Shown one piece after another: positions 1 to 44,068 of a stretch of 44,068 nt of DNA (positions are counted from its first letter, which is position 1; every line of letters starts with the position of its first letter). The position numbers and the translations under genes were made by a program. This DNA comes from a virus (taxonomy: Duplodnaviria > Caudoviricetes): positions 1-44,068 of IMG/VR virus record IMGVR_UViG_3300033434_000396; one strand, given 5' to 3'. A model generated the notes under the pieces. That model made no database searches. It saw nothing but the letters and a program-made list of their open reading frames with translations, and had not been told where the DNA came from.

Positions 1-285
1 CTACAACCCTAAGAGGTTAAACGCAGTATTCATCAGGCCGTAGACCGCCGCAATTACAATTCCGCACTCAGCGCACCGCACAATCATATCAATCCATTGA
101 CCAGAACCGCCGGTAATACTAATAACCGTTTTAATTATCCATCTTCCAACGGACAAGCCTATTAGCCAAATTACTGCGTGTGCTGGACCGCTGGGGCCGA
201 ATGTCTCGCCGATAACGGAGGCGAGCCCTGCAAATACAATATTGGGAATCAAAAGCACTGTGAGTACCATAATAACAACTCTCAT
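1..285 (-). CDS. Small membrane protein (signal-like N-terminus plus two hydrophobic helices; SpoIIIAC-like or pilin-like architecture)
   Basis: MRVVIMVLTVLLIPNIVFA leader; hydrophobic segments AVIWLIGLSVG and GIVIAAVYGLMNTAFNLLGL; ATGA overlap with upstream gene. Confidence 0.7.
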   Translation of the reverse strand: MRVVIMVLTVLLIPNIVFAGLASVIGETFGPSGPAHAVIWLIGLSVGRWIIKTVISITGGSGQWIDMIVRCAECGIVIAAVYGLMNTAFNLLGL

Positions 286-824
286 AATGTAAACGCCTCC
301 ATGATTTCGCTCATGGATAGGACACCGTTTTTCTTTACTTCGGCCACCAAAAGCCGTTTAATCTTTTCTTTTTCTTCCTTTATTACACTCCCGAAACTCC
401 ATGCACTTTCACCCTCATCTATAAACTTGCCGGCGGGATTATACTCAATGTTTAATTCCTGATATGTACCTTGCCATGTATTAAATACTCGAACTTGTGC
501 GGCATAGTTTTCTATGTCATATACCCAGTCCTGGTAAACTTGCCAAGACTTCTTATTCTTTACCAGCCAGAGGCGTATCCAATTTAAAGTTATATATCGC
601 TCTATCTCCTTTGGCTCTTTACCTACAAAATACCAACTAGGATTATCATATAGTCGAATAAAACTAACTTTCTTTCGCTGAGCTAAAATTGACATTCGTC
701 GCTGTGCGGGGAACAATGAAGGGAAAAACATTACTTGTATTTGCCTTGTCGATAGCGCTCTCCAGGACTCCAGCGTCTTAACAATCTCAAAATCCCTGGA
801 ACGGGAGAGCTGTTGGTGATTCAT
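282..824 (-). CDS. Replication-relaxation (Replic_Relax) family protein, wHTH plus apparently degenerate nuclease domain
   Basis: N-terminal RDxxIxxxL...LSTRQI..MFF...AQRRM..L pattern; directly downstream of an FtsK gene. Confidence 0.7.
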   Translation of the reverse strand: MNHQQLSRSRDFEIVKTLESWRALSTRQIQVMFFPSLFPAQRRMSILAQRKKVSFIRLYDNPSWYFVGKEPKEIERYITLNWIRLWLVKNKKSWQVYQDWVYDIENYAAQVRVFNTWQGTYQELNIEYNPAGKFIDEGESAWSFGSVIKEEKEKIKRLLVAEVKKNGVLSMSEIMEAFTL

Positions 825-1923
825 CGATTATCACCTGCCCCGGCATTACAGCTAAACGCCGTCTTACTTCGGATGATTCGGGATCTAGGTAAGGGGTTTG
901 TATCTCAGTAAACTTATTTCCTAATTTCCACATTGCCCGACCAGGTAAATCAGCCATATTTGCGGCCCTTGTATCATCTAAAATTATCTTACTATTGATG
1001 GTATCGGTTACACCCAGTGCTAGCCGTCCGCGCAAATTAGCCTTCAAGTCACCAAAACTTTTTTCAGCAAGAAATGTGCTGCTAGGTCTTTGCGTAGCCA
1101 GCACCATGCAAAATCCCGCCGACCGAGATAACCGGAGCAAACTATCTAAATGCCCAAGCGCTCGTTTATCGCCTAACTCGCCTAATTCGTCAATGACACA
1201 AACAACATGCCGCATAGGTTCATTCGGATAGTGACCATTATACTTTTTGATGTTGACCGTCAGTGTTTGCATGAATCGCTCTTGGCGGCGGCGCATTTCT
1301 CTGACCATACTTGCAAGCATATTCCTGGCATTGTCAGCATCAACAATTAATGCCAAATGATTTTTAAGGTATGCAAACTCAGACATTTTTAAATCGATAA
1401 CTACCATTAAGGGTGGGTCTGGCAAGTTGAGTAGTGAGTTAATCCAAACATGCAGCATATTGCTTTTACCGCCGCCAGTCGTTCCTGCTACAAGTACATG
1501 TGGTATATCAGCAAGATCTACAGTAACTAATCCTTGGTGAGAATACCCAATCGGGATTGGAAGTGTACCTTTTAGCTGATAATGCCAGTCAAACGAATAA
1601 TAATCTTGTAATGTATCCTCAATAAACCGGAGTAATATTCCTTTCCCTTGGCGCTTAATTTCGACGTTATCAATCCCAGTATGGTCCTTAAAGTAATCTA
1701 TCTTCTTTATAAAATCCTGGTGAGAGAGGGACGGAGGCAGAGTAATAACAAAGTCCCACCCTGCCTCTGTTTTCGTTTCCTTTTGAATCAACGGCCTCCG
1801 GTTTTCATCCCATAATGCTTCGATTACTTCACGAACAATCAATGGAGTTTCCCGTCCTAGCGCCTGTGCAAGTTTCTTTTTAGCTCTGTTGAATAGTGGT
1901 TGTAGGAGACTTGATTCGCTCAT
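787..1923 (-). CDS. FtsK/SpoIIIE-family ATPase
   Basis: PHVLVAGTTGGGKS Walker A, VIDLK, VVCVIDE Walker B, ATQRP, PGRA motifs. Confidence 0.93.
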   Translation of the reverse strand: MSESSLLQPLFNRAKKKLAQALGRETPLIVREVIEALWDENRRPLIQKETKTEAGWDFVITLPPSLSHQDFIKKIDYFKDHTGIDNVEIKRQGKGILLRFIEDTLQDYYSFDWHYQLKGTLPIPIGYSHQGLVTVDLADIPHVLVAGTTGGGKSNMLHVWINSLLNLPDPPLMVVIDLKMSEFAYLKNHLALIVDADNARNMLASMVREMRRRQERFMQTLTVNIKKYNGHYPNEPMRHVVCVIDELGELGDKRALGHLDSLLRLSRSAGFCMVLATQRPSSTFLAEKSFGDLKANLRGRLALGVTDTINSKIILDDTRAANMADLPGRAMWKLGNKFTEIQTPYLDPESSEVRRRLAVMPGQVIIDESPTALPFQGF

Positions 1924-2114
1924 TCGTCATCACCTACCGCATTGTTTACGCTCCGGCGGCGGCGTTTTGGCTCGTCGATGCCCATAAAATTCCGCGCGTT
2001 ATTCATTAGCATATCCTGAGTTACCAACGTCACCAAATGCTCCTCTGGGTCACCGGTCCGCATTAAATAAGCGTGAACCGCATCAGGAATTTTGATAGTA
2101 ATTTGTTGAGCCAT
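1920..2114 (-). CDS. Small ribbon-helix-helix-like DNA-binding protein
   Basis: QITIKIPDAVHAYL strand-helix start, basic C-terminus, strong AAGGAGG RBS. Confidence 0.55.
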   Translation of the reverse strand: MAQQITIKIPDAVHAYLMRTGDPEEHLVTLVTQDMLMNNARNFMGIDEPKRRRRSVNNAVGDDE

Positions 2115-2156
2115 AAATATATACCTCCTTCAATTCTTTGGTATATATTTATGGCT
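2109..2156. repeat. Perfect 17-bp inverted repeat with 14-nt loop overlapping RBS and start codon of the RHH-like gene
   Basis: AGCCATAAATATATACC (2109-2125) and GGTATATATTTATGGCT (2140-2156). Confidence 0.95.
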
Positions 2157-2209
2157 TAAGAGTATAAATGATGTATGTCCTAGGGAATAATAAGCATAAA
2201 AAAACCGAC

Positions 2210-2422
2210 CTATTCATAGTCAAATAAGTCGTCAACTTTACATCCTAATTTGCGGGATATTCGAAAAGCAGTTTCTATTTCGGGCTGTTGTTTTTGCATC
2301 TCATATCGATTATATTGTGACAATTTCACCCCTAAAAATTCAGCAAATTCTGTTTGCGGTACATCATGACCTTGCTTAACCGCATACTTTAATCGTATCT
2401 GTTTCAATTTATTTTTAAGCAT
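2210..2422 (-). CDS. XRE-family HTH transcriptional regulator
   Basis: LKNKLKQIR...QTEFAEFLGV...YNRYE...P.IETAFRISRKLGCKVDDLF. Confidence 0.9.
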   Translation of the reverse strand: MLKNKLKQIRLKYAVKQGHDVPQTEFAEFLGVKLSQYNRYEMQKQQPEIETAFRISRKLGCKVDDLFDYE

Positions 2423-2513
2423 ATCAATTCTCCTGCAGGAATATAATGGTAATTAATAGTAATTCTATATACTGTAAAATAATTCCTGTATAATATAATT
2501 TATGGAGGTTCAA

Positions 2514-3116
2514 ATGAAAAAAATTTTACTTATGTGCTTCCTGATCTTATCTTTTAATGCAGTATCATTCGCGTCAATTCTTGATCCAGATGAGAAACCA
2601 ACACCTTATATCAAAACCGTTGGAATCTTCCTAGATGCACCAATGTCATACGTTGATAATGAAACAGTTAGAACGTTAATACCAGAGAAAGCTAAAGAAC
2701 TTTTTCCAAGATTGAAATTTGATCTTCTGCCATTCGATAAAACAGAAATGGCTTTACGCACATACCGCGAAGATCATCGTATGATTGTTAATCAATACTT
2801 TTCACAACCCTTAAACCGAAATGACATTCAGGCAATCGGCAAAGACTTATCTTGTGATTATGCTTTATTTATCAAAATTTCAAATGGTCCGCCGCGAGTT
2901 AGCTCTGGTCTTTTATCAACCACGTTTAAAACAACAGTAATATGTGATGTACGTCTATTAGATATCGCAACCGGAAATTATATTATTAGTAAGCAAATAG
3001 TTAAAGACGGAAAAAGCACAGCGATTTATGCAGGTGTGCCATCCTTTGACAAGGCGTACAACGAAGCACTTGAAAAAACATTAAAAGAATTAACAATTGA
3101 TACCTCAACACTATAA
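2514..3116 (+). CDS. Secreted/periplasmic hypothetical protein (moron)
   Basis: Signal peptide MKKILLMCFLILSFNAVSFA; GGAGG RBS before ATG 2514; counter-oriented to phage late genes. Confidence 0.75.
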   Translation: MKKILLMCFLILSFNAVSFASILDPDEKPTPYIKTVGIFLDAPMSYVDNETVRTLIPEKAKELFPRLKFDLLPFDKTEMALRTYREDHRMIVNQYFSQPLNRNDIQAIGKDLSCDYALFIKISNGPPRVSSGLLSTTFKTTVICDVRLLDIATGNYIISKQIVKDGKSTAIYAGVPSFDKAYNEALEKTLKELTIDTSTL

Positions 3117-3236: not shown

Positions 3237-3694
3237 GCCGCCACCGCCCACAGCTGCAAAGCTTCCATCAGAGCCGCCGGTGTCACCCCATCAGCATATA
3301 TTCCCGGCAAAATATCCAAGCCCCCTGCCCTAAGTATCCGCGTTACTGCCTCAGAGCAATTTACTGTCACCTCACCATCACCAGGAATCTGCCGGCCTGT
3401 AATTTCACGAATACCACCGTTTATGCAATCCAAATACCCGTATGGTGTATTCAATAGGCGCTTTGCTTCTAACTCTGCATCGTCTATGTCAGGCACATCG
3501 ACAGTGATAATAGTCGTCTTGTGACCATCATAGGCGGTAAGTGGCGACTTAACAAAACCGTTGTCTAATGCCTCTAAAATTCCATCAAGCATAAATATAG
3601 CGGCATGACTTGGATCTGCTCCTGGGCCTTCAACGGCATCGATTATGCGACCAAATACCGTTTCTGGATAGCTAAATAAAATTTTCACTTCCAT
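3233..3694 (-). CDS. Permuted papain-like (YiiX/YaeF, NlpC/P60 superfamily) peptidase/amidase
   Basis: PSHAAI...LEA...PYG...NCSE order (His before Cys). Confidence 0.8.
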   Translation of the reverse strand: MEVKILFSYPETVFGRIIDAVEGPGADPSHAAIFMLDGILEALDNGFVKSPLTAYDGHKTTIITVDVPDIDDAELEAKRLLNTPYGYLDCINGGIREITGRQIPGDGEVTVNCSEAVTRILRAGGLDILPGIYADGVTPAALMEALQLWAVAA

Positions 3695-3764: not shown

Positions 3765-4283
3765 TTACTTAATCTGATCTTTGAGCCAACTAGTGCCTTT
3801 TGCAATGCCAGTAGCGACTAAACCAATTTCGCCTATGTTGCGTATTTTCACCCAAATACTTTTAGTTGTCTTGGCCTCATTCAACAATTCCTCAACAATA
3901 CTGACTGATCCCGTAGACGTAGCATTTGTTATGATAGTTGTGGCAGCTTCGGCAACGGCATCGACAACATCGGAAAGCTCCGTGGCAGAAGCCGCAGAGG
4001 CAATAGCCGAATCTAGGGTACTGTCGAGAGTTGACGTATCGGTTGCGGTCGTGCTTTCGGTTGACTCAGTAGATTCGGTGTCCGTTTCTTCCGTGGATTC
4101 AGTTTCGTCAGTATCGAGATAATCTGGAATGCCGTCACTGTCAGCATCATCGCTGGTATCTGTCGTTTCCGTTGCAGCGGTAGCAGTTTCATTCACTTCT
4201 GTTGCTGTTTCGGTTGCCTCCGTGGCAGTAGTTGCCTCCGTGGCAGTAGTTTCCTCTGTAGTTACTGTGGTTTCGTCAGACAT
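3765..4283 (-). CDS. Thr/Glu/Asp-rich protein with DxDxDG motif and amphipathic/hydrophobic C-terminus, in lysis cassette
   Basis: Start re-called at 4283 (AAGGAG RBS); DADSDGIPDYLDTD; C-terminal SIWVKIRNIGEIGLVATGIAKG. Confidence 0.65.
   Translation of the reverse strand: MSDETTVTTEETTATEATTATEATETATEVNETATAATETTDTSDDADSDGIPDYLDTDETESTEETDTESTESTESTTATDTSTLDSTLDSAIASAASATELSDVVDAVAEAATTIITNATSTGSVSIVEELLNEAKTTKSIWVKIRNIGEIGLVATGIAKGTSWLKDQIK
4213..4248. repeat. 18-bp perfect tandem repeat (x2) within the Thr-rich gene
   Basis: GTTGCCTCCGTGGCAGTA at 4213-4230 and 4231-4248. Confidence 0.9.
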
Positions 4284-4357
4284 AAATAAACACGCTCCTT
4301 TAGTTTTATTAAAATAAATGGCCATCTGTTTTTATGACAGCAGCCAAAGTACCCATG

Positions 4358-4849
4358 TTATTCACTTGCGCTCACCTGCTCTATAATGTCAGGCAAACGC
4401 TCATACAACTTATCACCGGGGCAATCAGTCGCTAGGCCGGGATCACTAACTATTTCGGCAACTTCTCTGTGACCAATAATCTGAGCATCGGGCCAATTGT
4501 CTTTTAGATCAGCCAGCAGTTTAGGCAATACTTCAATCTGCTCCGCTGTCGGCTCGTTGTCCTGGCAGTTACCGGATAAAGAAATTCCCACGCTACAGTA
4601 ATTCAGTCCCTGCGCATGGGAACCAATTGCATCACGCGGCCTACCTCGTTCGATAGTACCGTCGAATCTAATTACATAGTGATAACCAATACCCGCCCAA
4701 CCTAAATTAAGATGTTGCCGGTGTACACGTTCTGCCCCAACATCACCGGCAGAGGCTTCATGATGAACAATAAGGTAATCTGTTTCGCCTCGATAAGATA
4801 GTGGTCTAGCAAAATTTAAGTCAGTTTCAATAACGGTAACTCGTCCCAT
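4358..4849 (-). CDS. Endolysin, N-acetylmuramoyl-L-alanine amidase (Amidase_2, T7-lysozyme-like), no cell-wall-binding domain
   Basis: LIVHH, GWAGIGYHYVI, GR....GSHA, IIGHRE, TDCPG. Confidence 0.93.
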   Translation of the reverse strand: MGRVTVIETDLNFARPLSYRGETDYLIVHHEASAGDVGAERVHRQHLNLGWAGIGYHYVIRFDGTIERGRPRDAIGSHAQGLNYCSVGISLSGNCQDNEPTAEQIEVLPKLLADLKDNWPDAQIIGHREVAEIVSDPGLATDCPGDKLYERLPDIIEQVSASE

Positions 4850-5035
4850 TTATATACTCCCCTTCGGTGTATTGAGCCAGGAATCAGCCGCATATTTCGC
4901 TATAATAAATACGCCAAACTCCCGCAGTTTGTCCAGGTCAAAAGGTCCGATTCCAAGAGAGTTAGCGATCCACGCCAGCACCCAAATCACAGCAAATGCG
5001 GCAGGCCAGCTTTTGGGATTATTGATGATATTCAT
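4850..5035 (-). CDS. Putative holin
   Basis: 61 aa, two hydrophobic segments, ...LNTP ending, directly upstream of endolysin. Confidence 0.65.
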   Translation of the reverse strand: MNIINNPKSWPAAFAVIWVLAWIANSLGIGPFDLDKLREFGVFIIAKYAADSWLNTPKGSI

Positions 5036-5039
5036 GTAA

Positions 5040-5273
5040 TCACCCTCTCAATAAAATAGCCGCTCCCCCGATGATCGTAGCCGCAAGTTGGGCCATAATC
5101 CAGTAGAGCAGCTTATCAAATTTAGCGTCGAATTTTTTGTCCATTTCTACAACATTGGCTTCGACTCTGTGTATAGCTCCATTTTGTGATTTTTGCCAAC
5201 CCGTCAGGTTATCAATGTCGGCTCGGCATTTTACGACTTCAGAACATTTAGTATCAGCAATACAATATTCCAC
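5040..5273 (-). CDS. XhlA-like/holin-associated membrane protein
   Basis: Coiled-coil N-region and single C-terminal TM; first gene of lysis cassette. Confidence 0.6.
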   Translation of the reverse strand: MEYCIADTKCSEVVKCRADIDNLTGWQKSQNGAIHRVEANVVEMDKKFDAKFDKLLYWIMAQLAATIIGGAAILLRG

Positions 5274-42793: not shown

Positions 42794-44068
42794 ATGAGCA
42801 TTCAAAAGAAAGGTGACATTTATTATGTTGTATTGATGTATTACGACGAAAAAGGAAAAAAGAAGTACAAATGGCATAAGTCTGGAACTTCTAGTAAAGA
42901 AGCTGAAAAATTAGAAAGATCATTACGAACAGACATAGACCGCGGGGTTCTGATTTTATCAAATAAAACAACCCTGAAAGATTATTTAAATAAGTGGATC
43001 GACGTTGCTATTAGGCCAGAGCGCAGACCATCAACTGTCGCTAATTATGAAAGCCATATAAAGAACATCGTTAAAGGACTAGGCTCAGTAGATTTAGCAA
43101 AGTTGACACCAATAAAAATACAAGAATATTTGAATAGCGAACTTAAACGCCCTATTCAATCAAAAAGCAAACCTCCTGAAGAATTAAAACGAAAAAAGAA
43201 AGCGGTAAAAGAAAACTCTGACGAATCAAAGGCGAAAAAGCAAAAGCTGGTTTCTCCTACGACAGTCAGAGCACAATATAGTCTTTTATCCGATGCTCTT
43301 GGACGAGCTGTAAAATGGGGGATTATCGCAAAAAATCCTTGTGAAGCTGTTGATCCACCACAAAAAAATAAAGCCCATGCAAATGCCTACACTCCTGAAG
43401 AAGCAGACTTATTGATTAAGGCAATAGAAGACACGCACGTTAAATTGCCAGTCCTTCTCGGACTATTATGTGGTCTTCGGCGTGGCGAAGTTTGTGGGCT
43501 ACGATGGGAAGATATCGATCTAGATAAAAAAACCGCTAATATACGTCATAGCCTTGATAGAATGACTAAGGCATCTGCCATTGAGCTAGAAAAAAAGGAC
43601 ATTATTGTTTGGTGGGGTTGTGAATCTAAAGACAATAAATCAGTGTTAGCTCTTGGTCCAGTAAAAACAGATGAATCTGAAAGCGATATACCTTTACCAG
43701 GATTACTTATTCCGGTTTTAAAATCCGAGAAATTAGCCCAAAAGAAAAATAAGCTAGAATTGGGACAAGCTTACAACGATACTGGGTTTGTATGGTGCTG
43801 GGAAGATGGTTCACCCCATGATCCCGATTACCTGTACCACGAATTTATTAAATTGCTTGAGCGGTATGGTTTACGCAAAATCCGTTTTCATGATCTCCGG
43901 CATACACATGCAACATTATTGCTTCGCCAAAAGGTAGACATTAAAATAGTTAGTAAAAAGTTGCGGCATACTAAAGCGTCATTTACCGCAGATGTTTACC
44001 AGCACGTTCAGGAGGACATGCTTAGAGATACCGCCGATGCAATGGATGAGTTATTTAAAACCAAATGA
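42794..44068 (+). CDS. int: Tyrosine integrase
   Basis: GLRRGE, FHDLRHTHAT, LRH, VYQH. Confidence 0.96.
   Translation: MSIQKKGDIYYVVLMYYDEKGKKKYKWHKSGTSSKEAEKLERSLRTDIDRGVLILSNKTTLKDYLNKWIDVAIRPERRPSTVANYESHIKNIVKGLGSVDLAKLTPIKIQEYLNSELKRPIQSKSKPPEELKRKKKAVKENSDESKAKKQKLVSPTTVRAQYSLLSDALGRAVKWGIIAKNPCEAVDPPQKNKAHANAYTPEEADLLIKAIEDTHVKLPVLLGLLCGLRRGEVCGLRWEDIDLDKKTANIRHSLDRMTKASAIELEKKDIIVWWGCESKDNKSVLALGPVKTDESESDIPLPGLLIPVLKSEKLAQKKNKLELGQAYNDTGFVWCWEDGSPHDPDYLYHEFIKLLERYGLRKIRFHDLRHTHATLLLRQKVDIKIVSKKLRHTKASFTADVYQHVQEDMLRDTADAMDELFKTK

Follow-up and report, generated by a model that had tools for sequence, protein, structure and literature searches.

A prophage operon with a predicted mother-cell promoter and an FtsK/SpoIIIE/TcpA-type motor as a candidate exporter of phage DNA into the forespore

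The operon at one end of a Caudoviricetes prophage (IMG/VR virus record IMGVR_UViG_3300033434_000396, positions 1 to 44,068; this whole 44,068-nucleotide stretch is called the window below) raises the question of which DNA its predicted motor moves, at what stage, and to which compartment. The initial annotation described four overlapping, translationally coupled minus-strand genes preceded by an XRE gene, and this arrangement is confirmed, with overlaps of 4, 38, and 4 bp along the genes for proteins of 64, 378, 180, and 94 amino acids (aa). It further proposed that the products move phage DNA, either into the forespore or into a neighboring cell. The forespore option stands, backed by a predicted mother-cell promoter, while the neighbor option is poorly supported. 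The reading developed here, which is given an even chance, is that the operon products pump phage DNA that is not integrated out of the mother cell, through the sporulation septum, and into the forespore. It starts from a motor fold and a promoter motif; transport, DNA binding, and expression are predicted from the sequence and a structure model. The parts of the module are as follows:

2210..2422, minus strand: XRE helix-turn-helix gene (PF01381, E value 3.7e-10), co-oriented with the operon
2145..2182, minus strand: predicted mother-cell promoter (matrix score 17.5)
1920..2114, minus strand: gene for a 64-aa probable ribbon-helix-helix (RHH) protein (sub-threshold structure matches)
787..1923, minus strand: gene for a 378-aa FtsK/SpoIIIE/TcpA-type alpha-beta motor (PF01580, E value 7.7e-20)
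282..824, minus strand: gene for a 180-aa Replic_Relax-derived protein (alignment A5, winged-helix [wHTH] fold)
1..285, minus strand: gene for a 94-aa membrane protein (hydropathy)

The operon upstream regions have a two-block motif in common across loci. In the window it comprises a −10 element (2153-2145), a 14-bp spacer, and a −35 element (2174-2168), with a SpoIIID-like box (2182-2173) abutting the −35 element. The motif letters and additional letters upstream fit the sigma-E and SpoIIID consensus sequences, respectively. The two-block fit was seeded by eye, because an unseeded motif search settled on the T-tract of the upstream terminator instead of the promoter. This T-tract, common to many loci in a comparison of upstream regions, lies in the terminator region of the XRE gene, which is likely on a transcript separate from the operon, with a hairpin and T run seen by eye 3′ of it.

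The promoter matrix draws on 30 upstream regions of other genomes, 21 of them used in the fit, with the window and loci L002 and L015 left out. Over 3,310 upstream regions of the host genome, the full matrix ranks the module of a second prophage, on contig C68, first, host spoIIID second, and the window module third; the window site, at 2145-2179, is also the best on either strand of the 44-kb window. The core-only matrix places spoIIID first, spoIIIAA 7th, and the window module 26th. Further ranks with the full matrix are 87 for spoIIM, 98 for spoIIP, and 112 for spoIIIAA, all of these host genes presumably belonging to the sigma-E regulon, as in Bacillus subtilis. Forespore genes rank low (gpr 1,001, spoVAC 1,813, and sspA 2,799; spoVT is absent from the ranked gene set). 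In none of 40 control fits, run with this seed on other genes at these loci, did spoIIID or either module reach the top three. Sites scoring 13.5 to 17.7 are present at the held-out loci L190, L192, and L194, which are three of the six new loci that the script could orient; the module copies of Bacillus phages have weak promoter scores. The predicted geometry is compatible with the sigma-E spacing given in the accessible text of PMC517825, a 12-bp gap between 8-nucleotide and 10-nucleotide elements, and SpoIIID sites that overlap the polymerase site are described there as generally repressing. The motif thus points to predicted control of the operon by sigma-E in the mother cell. Sigma-K may be an alternative reader, and the compartment would be the mother cell with either factor.

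The 378-aa protein is one of a group of related single-motor proteins of about 350 to 450 aa, in which Walker A and B, the arginine finger, and an ATQRP motif are conserved (alignment A1, with 89 matches of adequate length and coverage out of 150 matches listed). Its AlphaFold model (predicted local distance difference test score [pLDDT] of 94) contains alpha and beta domains and, in Foldseek, best matches TcpA of pCW3 (TM-score 0.75), with an FtsK motor at 0.71. The annotated FtsK ATPase with intact Walker motifs and neither a transmembrane nor a gamma domain is borne out: no hydrophobic 19-mer exceeds 1.14, and the model stops after the ATPase domain, its last helix covering residues 351 to 359. 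By motifs and fold, this is an intact FtsK/SpoIIIE/TcpA-type motor and a putative hexameric DNA translocase.

The second gene product had been called a winged-helix Replic_Relax protein. The winged helix is retained, over residues 2 to 71 with Z up to 10.1 in a structure comparison, but the family match reaches only an E value of 0.029 (residues 17 to 56), below the cut-off, and the nuclease residues are lost. In alignment A5, 12 long rows retain a histidine and a PD...ExD acidic nuclease pattern, which is missing in the window protein and in 10 other short rows; 13 short forms have lost these residues, with purifying selection where tested. The 180-aa protein lacks nuclease residues and therefore cannot be called a relaxase, so that an intact, nicking relaxase in the window copy is rejected. 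It is instead read as a Replic_Relax/MobC descendant and a predicted nuclease-dead DNA binder. A homologue search with it returned just two proteins, a clostridial long form found no match among annotated phages, and the winged-helix profile gave nothing significant in a PDB sequence search. Foldseek with the 180-aa model gave no match at an E value of 0.001, and the C-terminal part was barely covered in the fold comparison. At L083 5007-5957 (the same as L060), Replic_Relax and a membrane hairpin share one 316-aa frame, either a fusion or an in-frame tandem.

Motor and partner bear on a different destination, MobC/TcpA-like mobilization to neighboring cells, alone or through the mating pore of another element, in line with Pathria's proposal for a related operon (PMC3357382). 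The best motor fold match is TcpA, the partner descends from Replic_Relax, long partner forms retain MobC-type residues, the Atlas assigns TrbC/VirB2-like features at 0.90, and PF13814 is MobC in streptococcal integrative mobilizable elements (PMC5357655, accessible part). In contrast to pCW3 TcpA with MobC relaxases, the window set has no membrane anchor and no catalytic residues, and no VirB4 or other mating-pore gene was seen among the 43 scanned open reading frames (ORFs) of the window, of which 31 were compared with PHROGs only. In the accessible part of PMC5357655, moreover, MobC of these elements pairs with VirD4, never with TcpA. The loss of nuclease residues under purifying selection also argues against mobilization, which leaves the mother-cell promoter and the tie to sporulators unexplained. 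Transfer to a neighboring cell, as first annotated, is poorly supported, and mobilization is regarded as quite unlikely.

Hydropathy confirms the 94-aa product as a membrane protein, with an N-terminal hydrophobic segment followed by a two-helix hairpin. When a profile built from module hairpins only was run against 28,736 six-frame ORFs of the host genome, the best non-module match was spoIIIAC (E value 0.013, then 0.006 with a larger alignment). The same gene, its identity confirmed by gene order and Pfam, was the best non-module match in genomes G251, G253, and G254 (E values 2e-4, 4e-4, and 2e-5; G252 was not scored), which makes four of five genomes, with weak scores. The window protein has no PF06686 match, and a PF06686 search of this genome does not find the module even at an E value of 10. 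A profile of the second hairpin (M2) picked up no spoIIIA genes, a PDB sequence search with the hairpin profile gave nothing significant, and one of 22 hairpin members weakly matches TrbC/VirB2 (PF04956, E value 0.015). The likeness to SpoIIIAC is therefore a weak but replicated lead from profile comparison and not a family assignment. Hairpins in relatives often occur in tandem, and a fusion of hairpin and M23 peptidase is present in seven loci by eye, confirmed by Pfam for L031. A small conserved protein of 67 to 69 aa lies directly downstream of the hairpin gene in L016, L017, L019, L020, and C68.

The RHH call for the 64-aa protein, also made in the initial annotation, rests on Atlas structure rows of the RHH/CopG type (TM-score 0.54 to 0.65), all sub-threshold; its family profile gives weak NikR matches (E value about 0.4) and nothing significant in a PDB sequence search. 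It is probably an RHH protein. Its gene is absent from the C68 module, in the same genome, and from the BtCS33 and DLc1 annotations. It is thus an optional part of the module, and the obligatory adaptor first envisaged is rejected.

Several relative loci carry a ParM-like actin gene (confirmed by Pfam as ALP_N in L026) and an RHH gene upstream, which favors plasmid-style partition of extrachromosomal phage DNA before or at septation, or a relic of it. Consistent with this, the motor matches 214 plasmid records, mostly from Bacillus and Clostridium (four are labelled Prevotella or Bacteroides). However, the window copy has no ParM-like actin gene, the phage integrates, and sigma-E is active only after septation. 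Against a relic, the ratio of nonsynonymous to synonymous substitution rates (dN/dS) relative to the closest relative, L002, is 0.06 to 0.09 for the XRE, 64-aa (0.09), and 180-aa (0.057) genes and both membrane genes; for the FtsK gene, synonymous sites are saturated. These five genes show that the module is not a chance assembly, and their purifying selection rejects decay. Partition, as Skorynina reads the set of the Bacillus pumilus phages (a segregation relic in the accessible text of PMC9658697), is considered improbable.

The gene-neighborhood survey suggested at first annotation supports both co-occurrence and a link to endospore formers. In 47 hand-picked FtsK loci, a Replic_Relax-like gene is nearby in 44 and a hairpin gene in 39; most of these loci sat in training alignments, some are near duplicates, and the regular expression for catalytic residues undercounts (28). 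Among loci new to the profiles (L188 to L195), each of the two genes is found by profile in seven of eight. In a class sample of 251 genomes, this genome included, the motor module occurs in 6 of 71 genomes with SpoIIIAC and in 0 of 180 without it. A phylum sample holds the motor in 10 of 401 genomes, nine with spoIIID and the tenth with spoIIIAC. Eighty named loci were kept, and the 12 among them whose match begins with the N-terminal domain all come from Bacillota (e.g., Desulfosporosinus, Pelosinus, Anaerospora, and Dethiobacter). The Bacillus-type partner protein matches 26 annotated phage records, 23 from Bacillus, Geobacillus, or Cytobacillus; the remaining matches are two of Staphylococcus phage SpaA1, with a protein identical to that of BtCS33, and one labelled Stenotrophomonas. 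Among Bacillus subtilis phages, phi18-2 and 268TH007 carry the gene pair. Matches of the motor alone extend to phages of Mycobacterium, Listeria, and others; among the rows listed, these fall mostly on the ATPase domain. The module is present in temperate BtCS33 and in the Salasmaviridae phage DLc1. A cluster of short palindromic TACC-NN-GGTA-like repeats lies upstream of both copies (L003 3040-3300 in BtCS33 and L006 ~3500-3610 in DLc1), possibly a site for loading, a centromere-like site, or a very small repetitive ORF.

Export into the forespore would proceed as follows. After asymmetric division, expression of the operon would come only from a phage copy located in the mother cell, making the promoter a sensor of the "wrong compartment," and the SpoIIID-like box, in contact with the −35 element, would confine this expression to an early pulse. 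The SpoIIIAC-like hairpins, given their weak similarity, may position the motor, which has no anchor of its own, at the septal or engulfing membrane, and the winged-helix protein would load it onto phage DNA, replacing the missing gamma domain; long partner forms elsewhere may also nick, while the window form is predicted not to. ATP-driven translocation would then deliver the phage genome to the spore. In relatives, ParM-like actins would be accessories that position the DNA, and hairpin-M23 fusions accessories that open the septal wall. In this full form, a post-septation exporter that combines a mother-cell-only promoter with a split pump of the SpoIIIE kind, docked by mimics of SpoIIIAC where mother cell and forespore meet, the proposal is tentative, at slightly under an even chance.

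Several observations weigh against export. The most serious is that a prophage, once integrated, already reaches the spore as part of the forespore chromosome, and yet lysogens are predicted to express the operon in every mother cell. A benefit would arise only when infection is fresh or the phage has been induced; otherwise the function differs. No cis loading site was identified, and the best motor fold match is a conjugation coupling protein. The seed letters of the promoter matrix were picked by eye, and 9 of the 30 training regions, most of the Bacillus phage ones among them, were unused in the fit. At L188, L189, and L195, no site directly upstream scores above 8, and the matrix misses spoIVA (1,127) and a second spoIIP-family gene (2,609), with spoIID at 288. 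The hairpin profile missed spoIIIAC in G255, although the gene is present there; hhalign gives probabilities of just 43% and 24% for the hairpin against the SpoIIIAC family; no hairpin member exceeds the PF06686 cut-off (best E value 0.014, 16 bits versus 24); and the Atlas gives TrbC/VirB2-like clusters at 0.90 for the 94-aa protein. Because the baseline is 315 of 401 phylum genomes with spoIIID, the phylum sample discriminates little; kin are not independent, the search profile derives from the query's relatives, and some phage and plasmid matches bear non-sporulator labels.

Expression from an integrated prophage would also be accounted for if the operon sabotages or retunes sporulation, the hairpins poisoning the SpoIIIA-SpoIIQ channel or the motor disturbing chromosome transfer, so that the cell stays usable for phage growth or the spore yield of lysogens changes. 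This explanation draws on the same promoter and SpoIIIAC evidence as export and tolerates the loss of the nuclease. It does not, however, need a conserved motor with a DNA-binding protein (44 of 47 loci) or ParM-like accessories, and prophage-bearing hosts retain their sporulation genes; the present host has spoIIIAC/AD, spoIIID, spoIVA, and others. Sabotage is judged unlikely, though it is the main rival of export.

The window spans the main part of a complete prophage of siphovirus type, with genes for integrase, repressor, replication, terminase, portal, head, and tail functions and for the amidase. Its ends and the lysis region are placed as follows:

4358..5273, minus strand: lysis region, an amidase (PF01510, E value 3.6e-19) and two small membrane/holin-like ORFs
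42794..44068, plus strand: integrase at the other prophage end (phrog_1, E value 1.9e-75)

The two small ORFs have no family match, and their holin label comes from position. The operon had been placed after the lysis cassette; it does lie downstream, but about 2 kb away with three genes between. An exact 48-bp attachment repeat just beyond both window ends (C20:126922-126969 and 172240-172287) delimits a prophage of about 45.3 kb. By eye the repeat resembles a tRNA 3′ end; neither the window nor L001 contains a tRNA according to ARAGORN. The operon runs past window base 1 into a second membrane gene (121 aa, L001 6161-6526), which is kept in L002 and L020 and is under purifying selection. Beyond the window, this gene is followed by a c-di-GMP-I riboswitch (L001 6621-6706, 573 bases past window base 1, 75.7 bits) and then by another XRE gene. 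The riboswitch precedes a ribosome site with no ORF of at least 30 aa directly behind, and it is absent from the matching L002 stretch. At window positions 3765-4325, after the amidase, a 186-aa Thr/Glu/Asp-rich protein without family match is encoded, which also occurs in L002 and C68. Between lysis genes and module, on the opposite strand (2502-3116), lies a gene for a 204-aa predicted exported protein, also in L002 and likewise without family match.

The second prophage module (C68:212238-214321, L008) consists of an XRE gene, an FtsK gene whose product is 49% identical, and genes for a 152-aa winged-helix protein and a hairpin protein; it lacks the RHH gene and has the strongest promoter site of the genome. 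The C68 prophage looks otherwise unrelated, with the same 153-aa and Thr/Glu-rich genes upstream.

An ATPase next to a nuclease-fold protein in such a moron position could also suggest an anti-phage or superinfection exclusion function, and the motor gives generic ATPase matches to the PADLOC SspH, mad8, and HerA models. The partner proteins, long or short, have no PADLOC match, the nuclease residues are lost, and the promoter is of a sporulation stage; a defense role is thus very improbable. A known defense system is rejected, as the PADLOC components do not all match one system.

Compared with known systems, the window motor shares the alpha-beta fold and motifs of SpoIIIE/FtsK and the predicted direction from mother cell to forespore; it differs in lacking transmembrane and gamma domains, in having its partners as separate genes, and in being phage encoded. 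With the SpoIIIA-SpoIIQ channel, the hairpin shares the two-helix form, a weak SpoIIIAC/AD profile similarity, frequent tandem occurrence, and the sigma factor predicted also for spoIIIA, and the M23 fusion in relatives presumably recalls SpoIIQ. In contrast to the channel, it stays below the family cut-off, has no SpoIIIAA or SpoIIIAE-AH equivalents, and is linked to a DNA motor. Phi29 parS and pLS32 AlfA provide passive or partition-based spore entrapment. The outcome, extrachromosomal DNA in the spore, is the same, but these act at or before septation by segregation, whereas for the window operon the prediction is action after septation through a pump of its own.

Such gene sets are already in print. 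The accessible text of PMC3357382 (Pathria 2012) describes a "DNA translocation operon" of phages 0305phi8-36, SPO1, GBSV1, and Gamma, of unknown function and peculiar to phages of Bacillaceae, whose deletion leaves plaques unchanged; it proposes biofilm transfer and calls the reason for the tie to phages unknown. The unchanged plaques fit a sporulation-stage function, and the strings "spore," "sporulat," "promoter," and "sigma" do not occur in that text. Both operons place a MobC-related gene, degenerate in the window, by an anchorless translocase ATPase, with separate membrane genes. They differ in that 0305phi8-36 has a VirD4/AAA_10-like ATPase and a VirB6-like protein, while the window combines an alpha-beta motor of the FtsK type with hairpins resembling SpoIIIAC and a partner predicted to be nuclease-dead. 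A set of the same four gene types, TrbC/VirB2, Replic_Relax, FtsK, and RHH, is reported for the Bacillus pumilus phages Novomoskovsk and Bolokhovo (PMC9658697), with no sporulation link in the accessible text, and such genes are likewise read as plasmid segregation parts in that of PMC7685451. According to the available part of PMC10294663, spoIIIE is among the sporulation-gene homologues in phages of spore formers, with entrapment suggested generally, and that of PMC12991052 (2026) cites only host-derived segregation genes for phage spore entry. The literature search found no link of the operon to a mother-cell promoter or to SpoIIIAC; most subscription papers and supplements were outside its coverage, and an earlier description is possible. 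As far as found, the conserved promoter, the match of hairpin and SpoIIIAC, and the occurrence of the module only with sporulation genes in the sampled genomes are new.

The way in which phage genomes get into spores has long been an open question. The predicted mother-cell promoter and the sporulation-channel-like parts give an orphan operon a stage and a compartment. If export is true, the operon would be an active, phage-built route of spore entrapment in phages both temperate and lytic, from Bacilli to Negativicutes, and would put parts derived from conjugation to a new use, between two compartments within a single cell. It would then explain how such phages get stored in spores and bear on phage persistence wherever spores survive.

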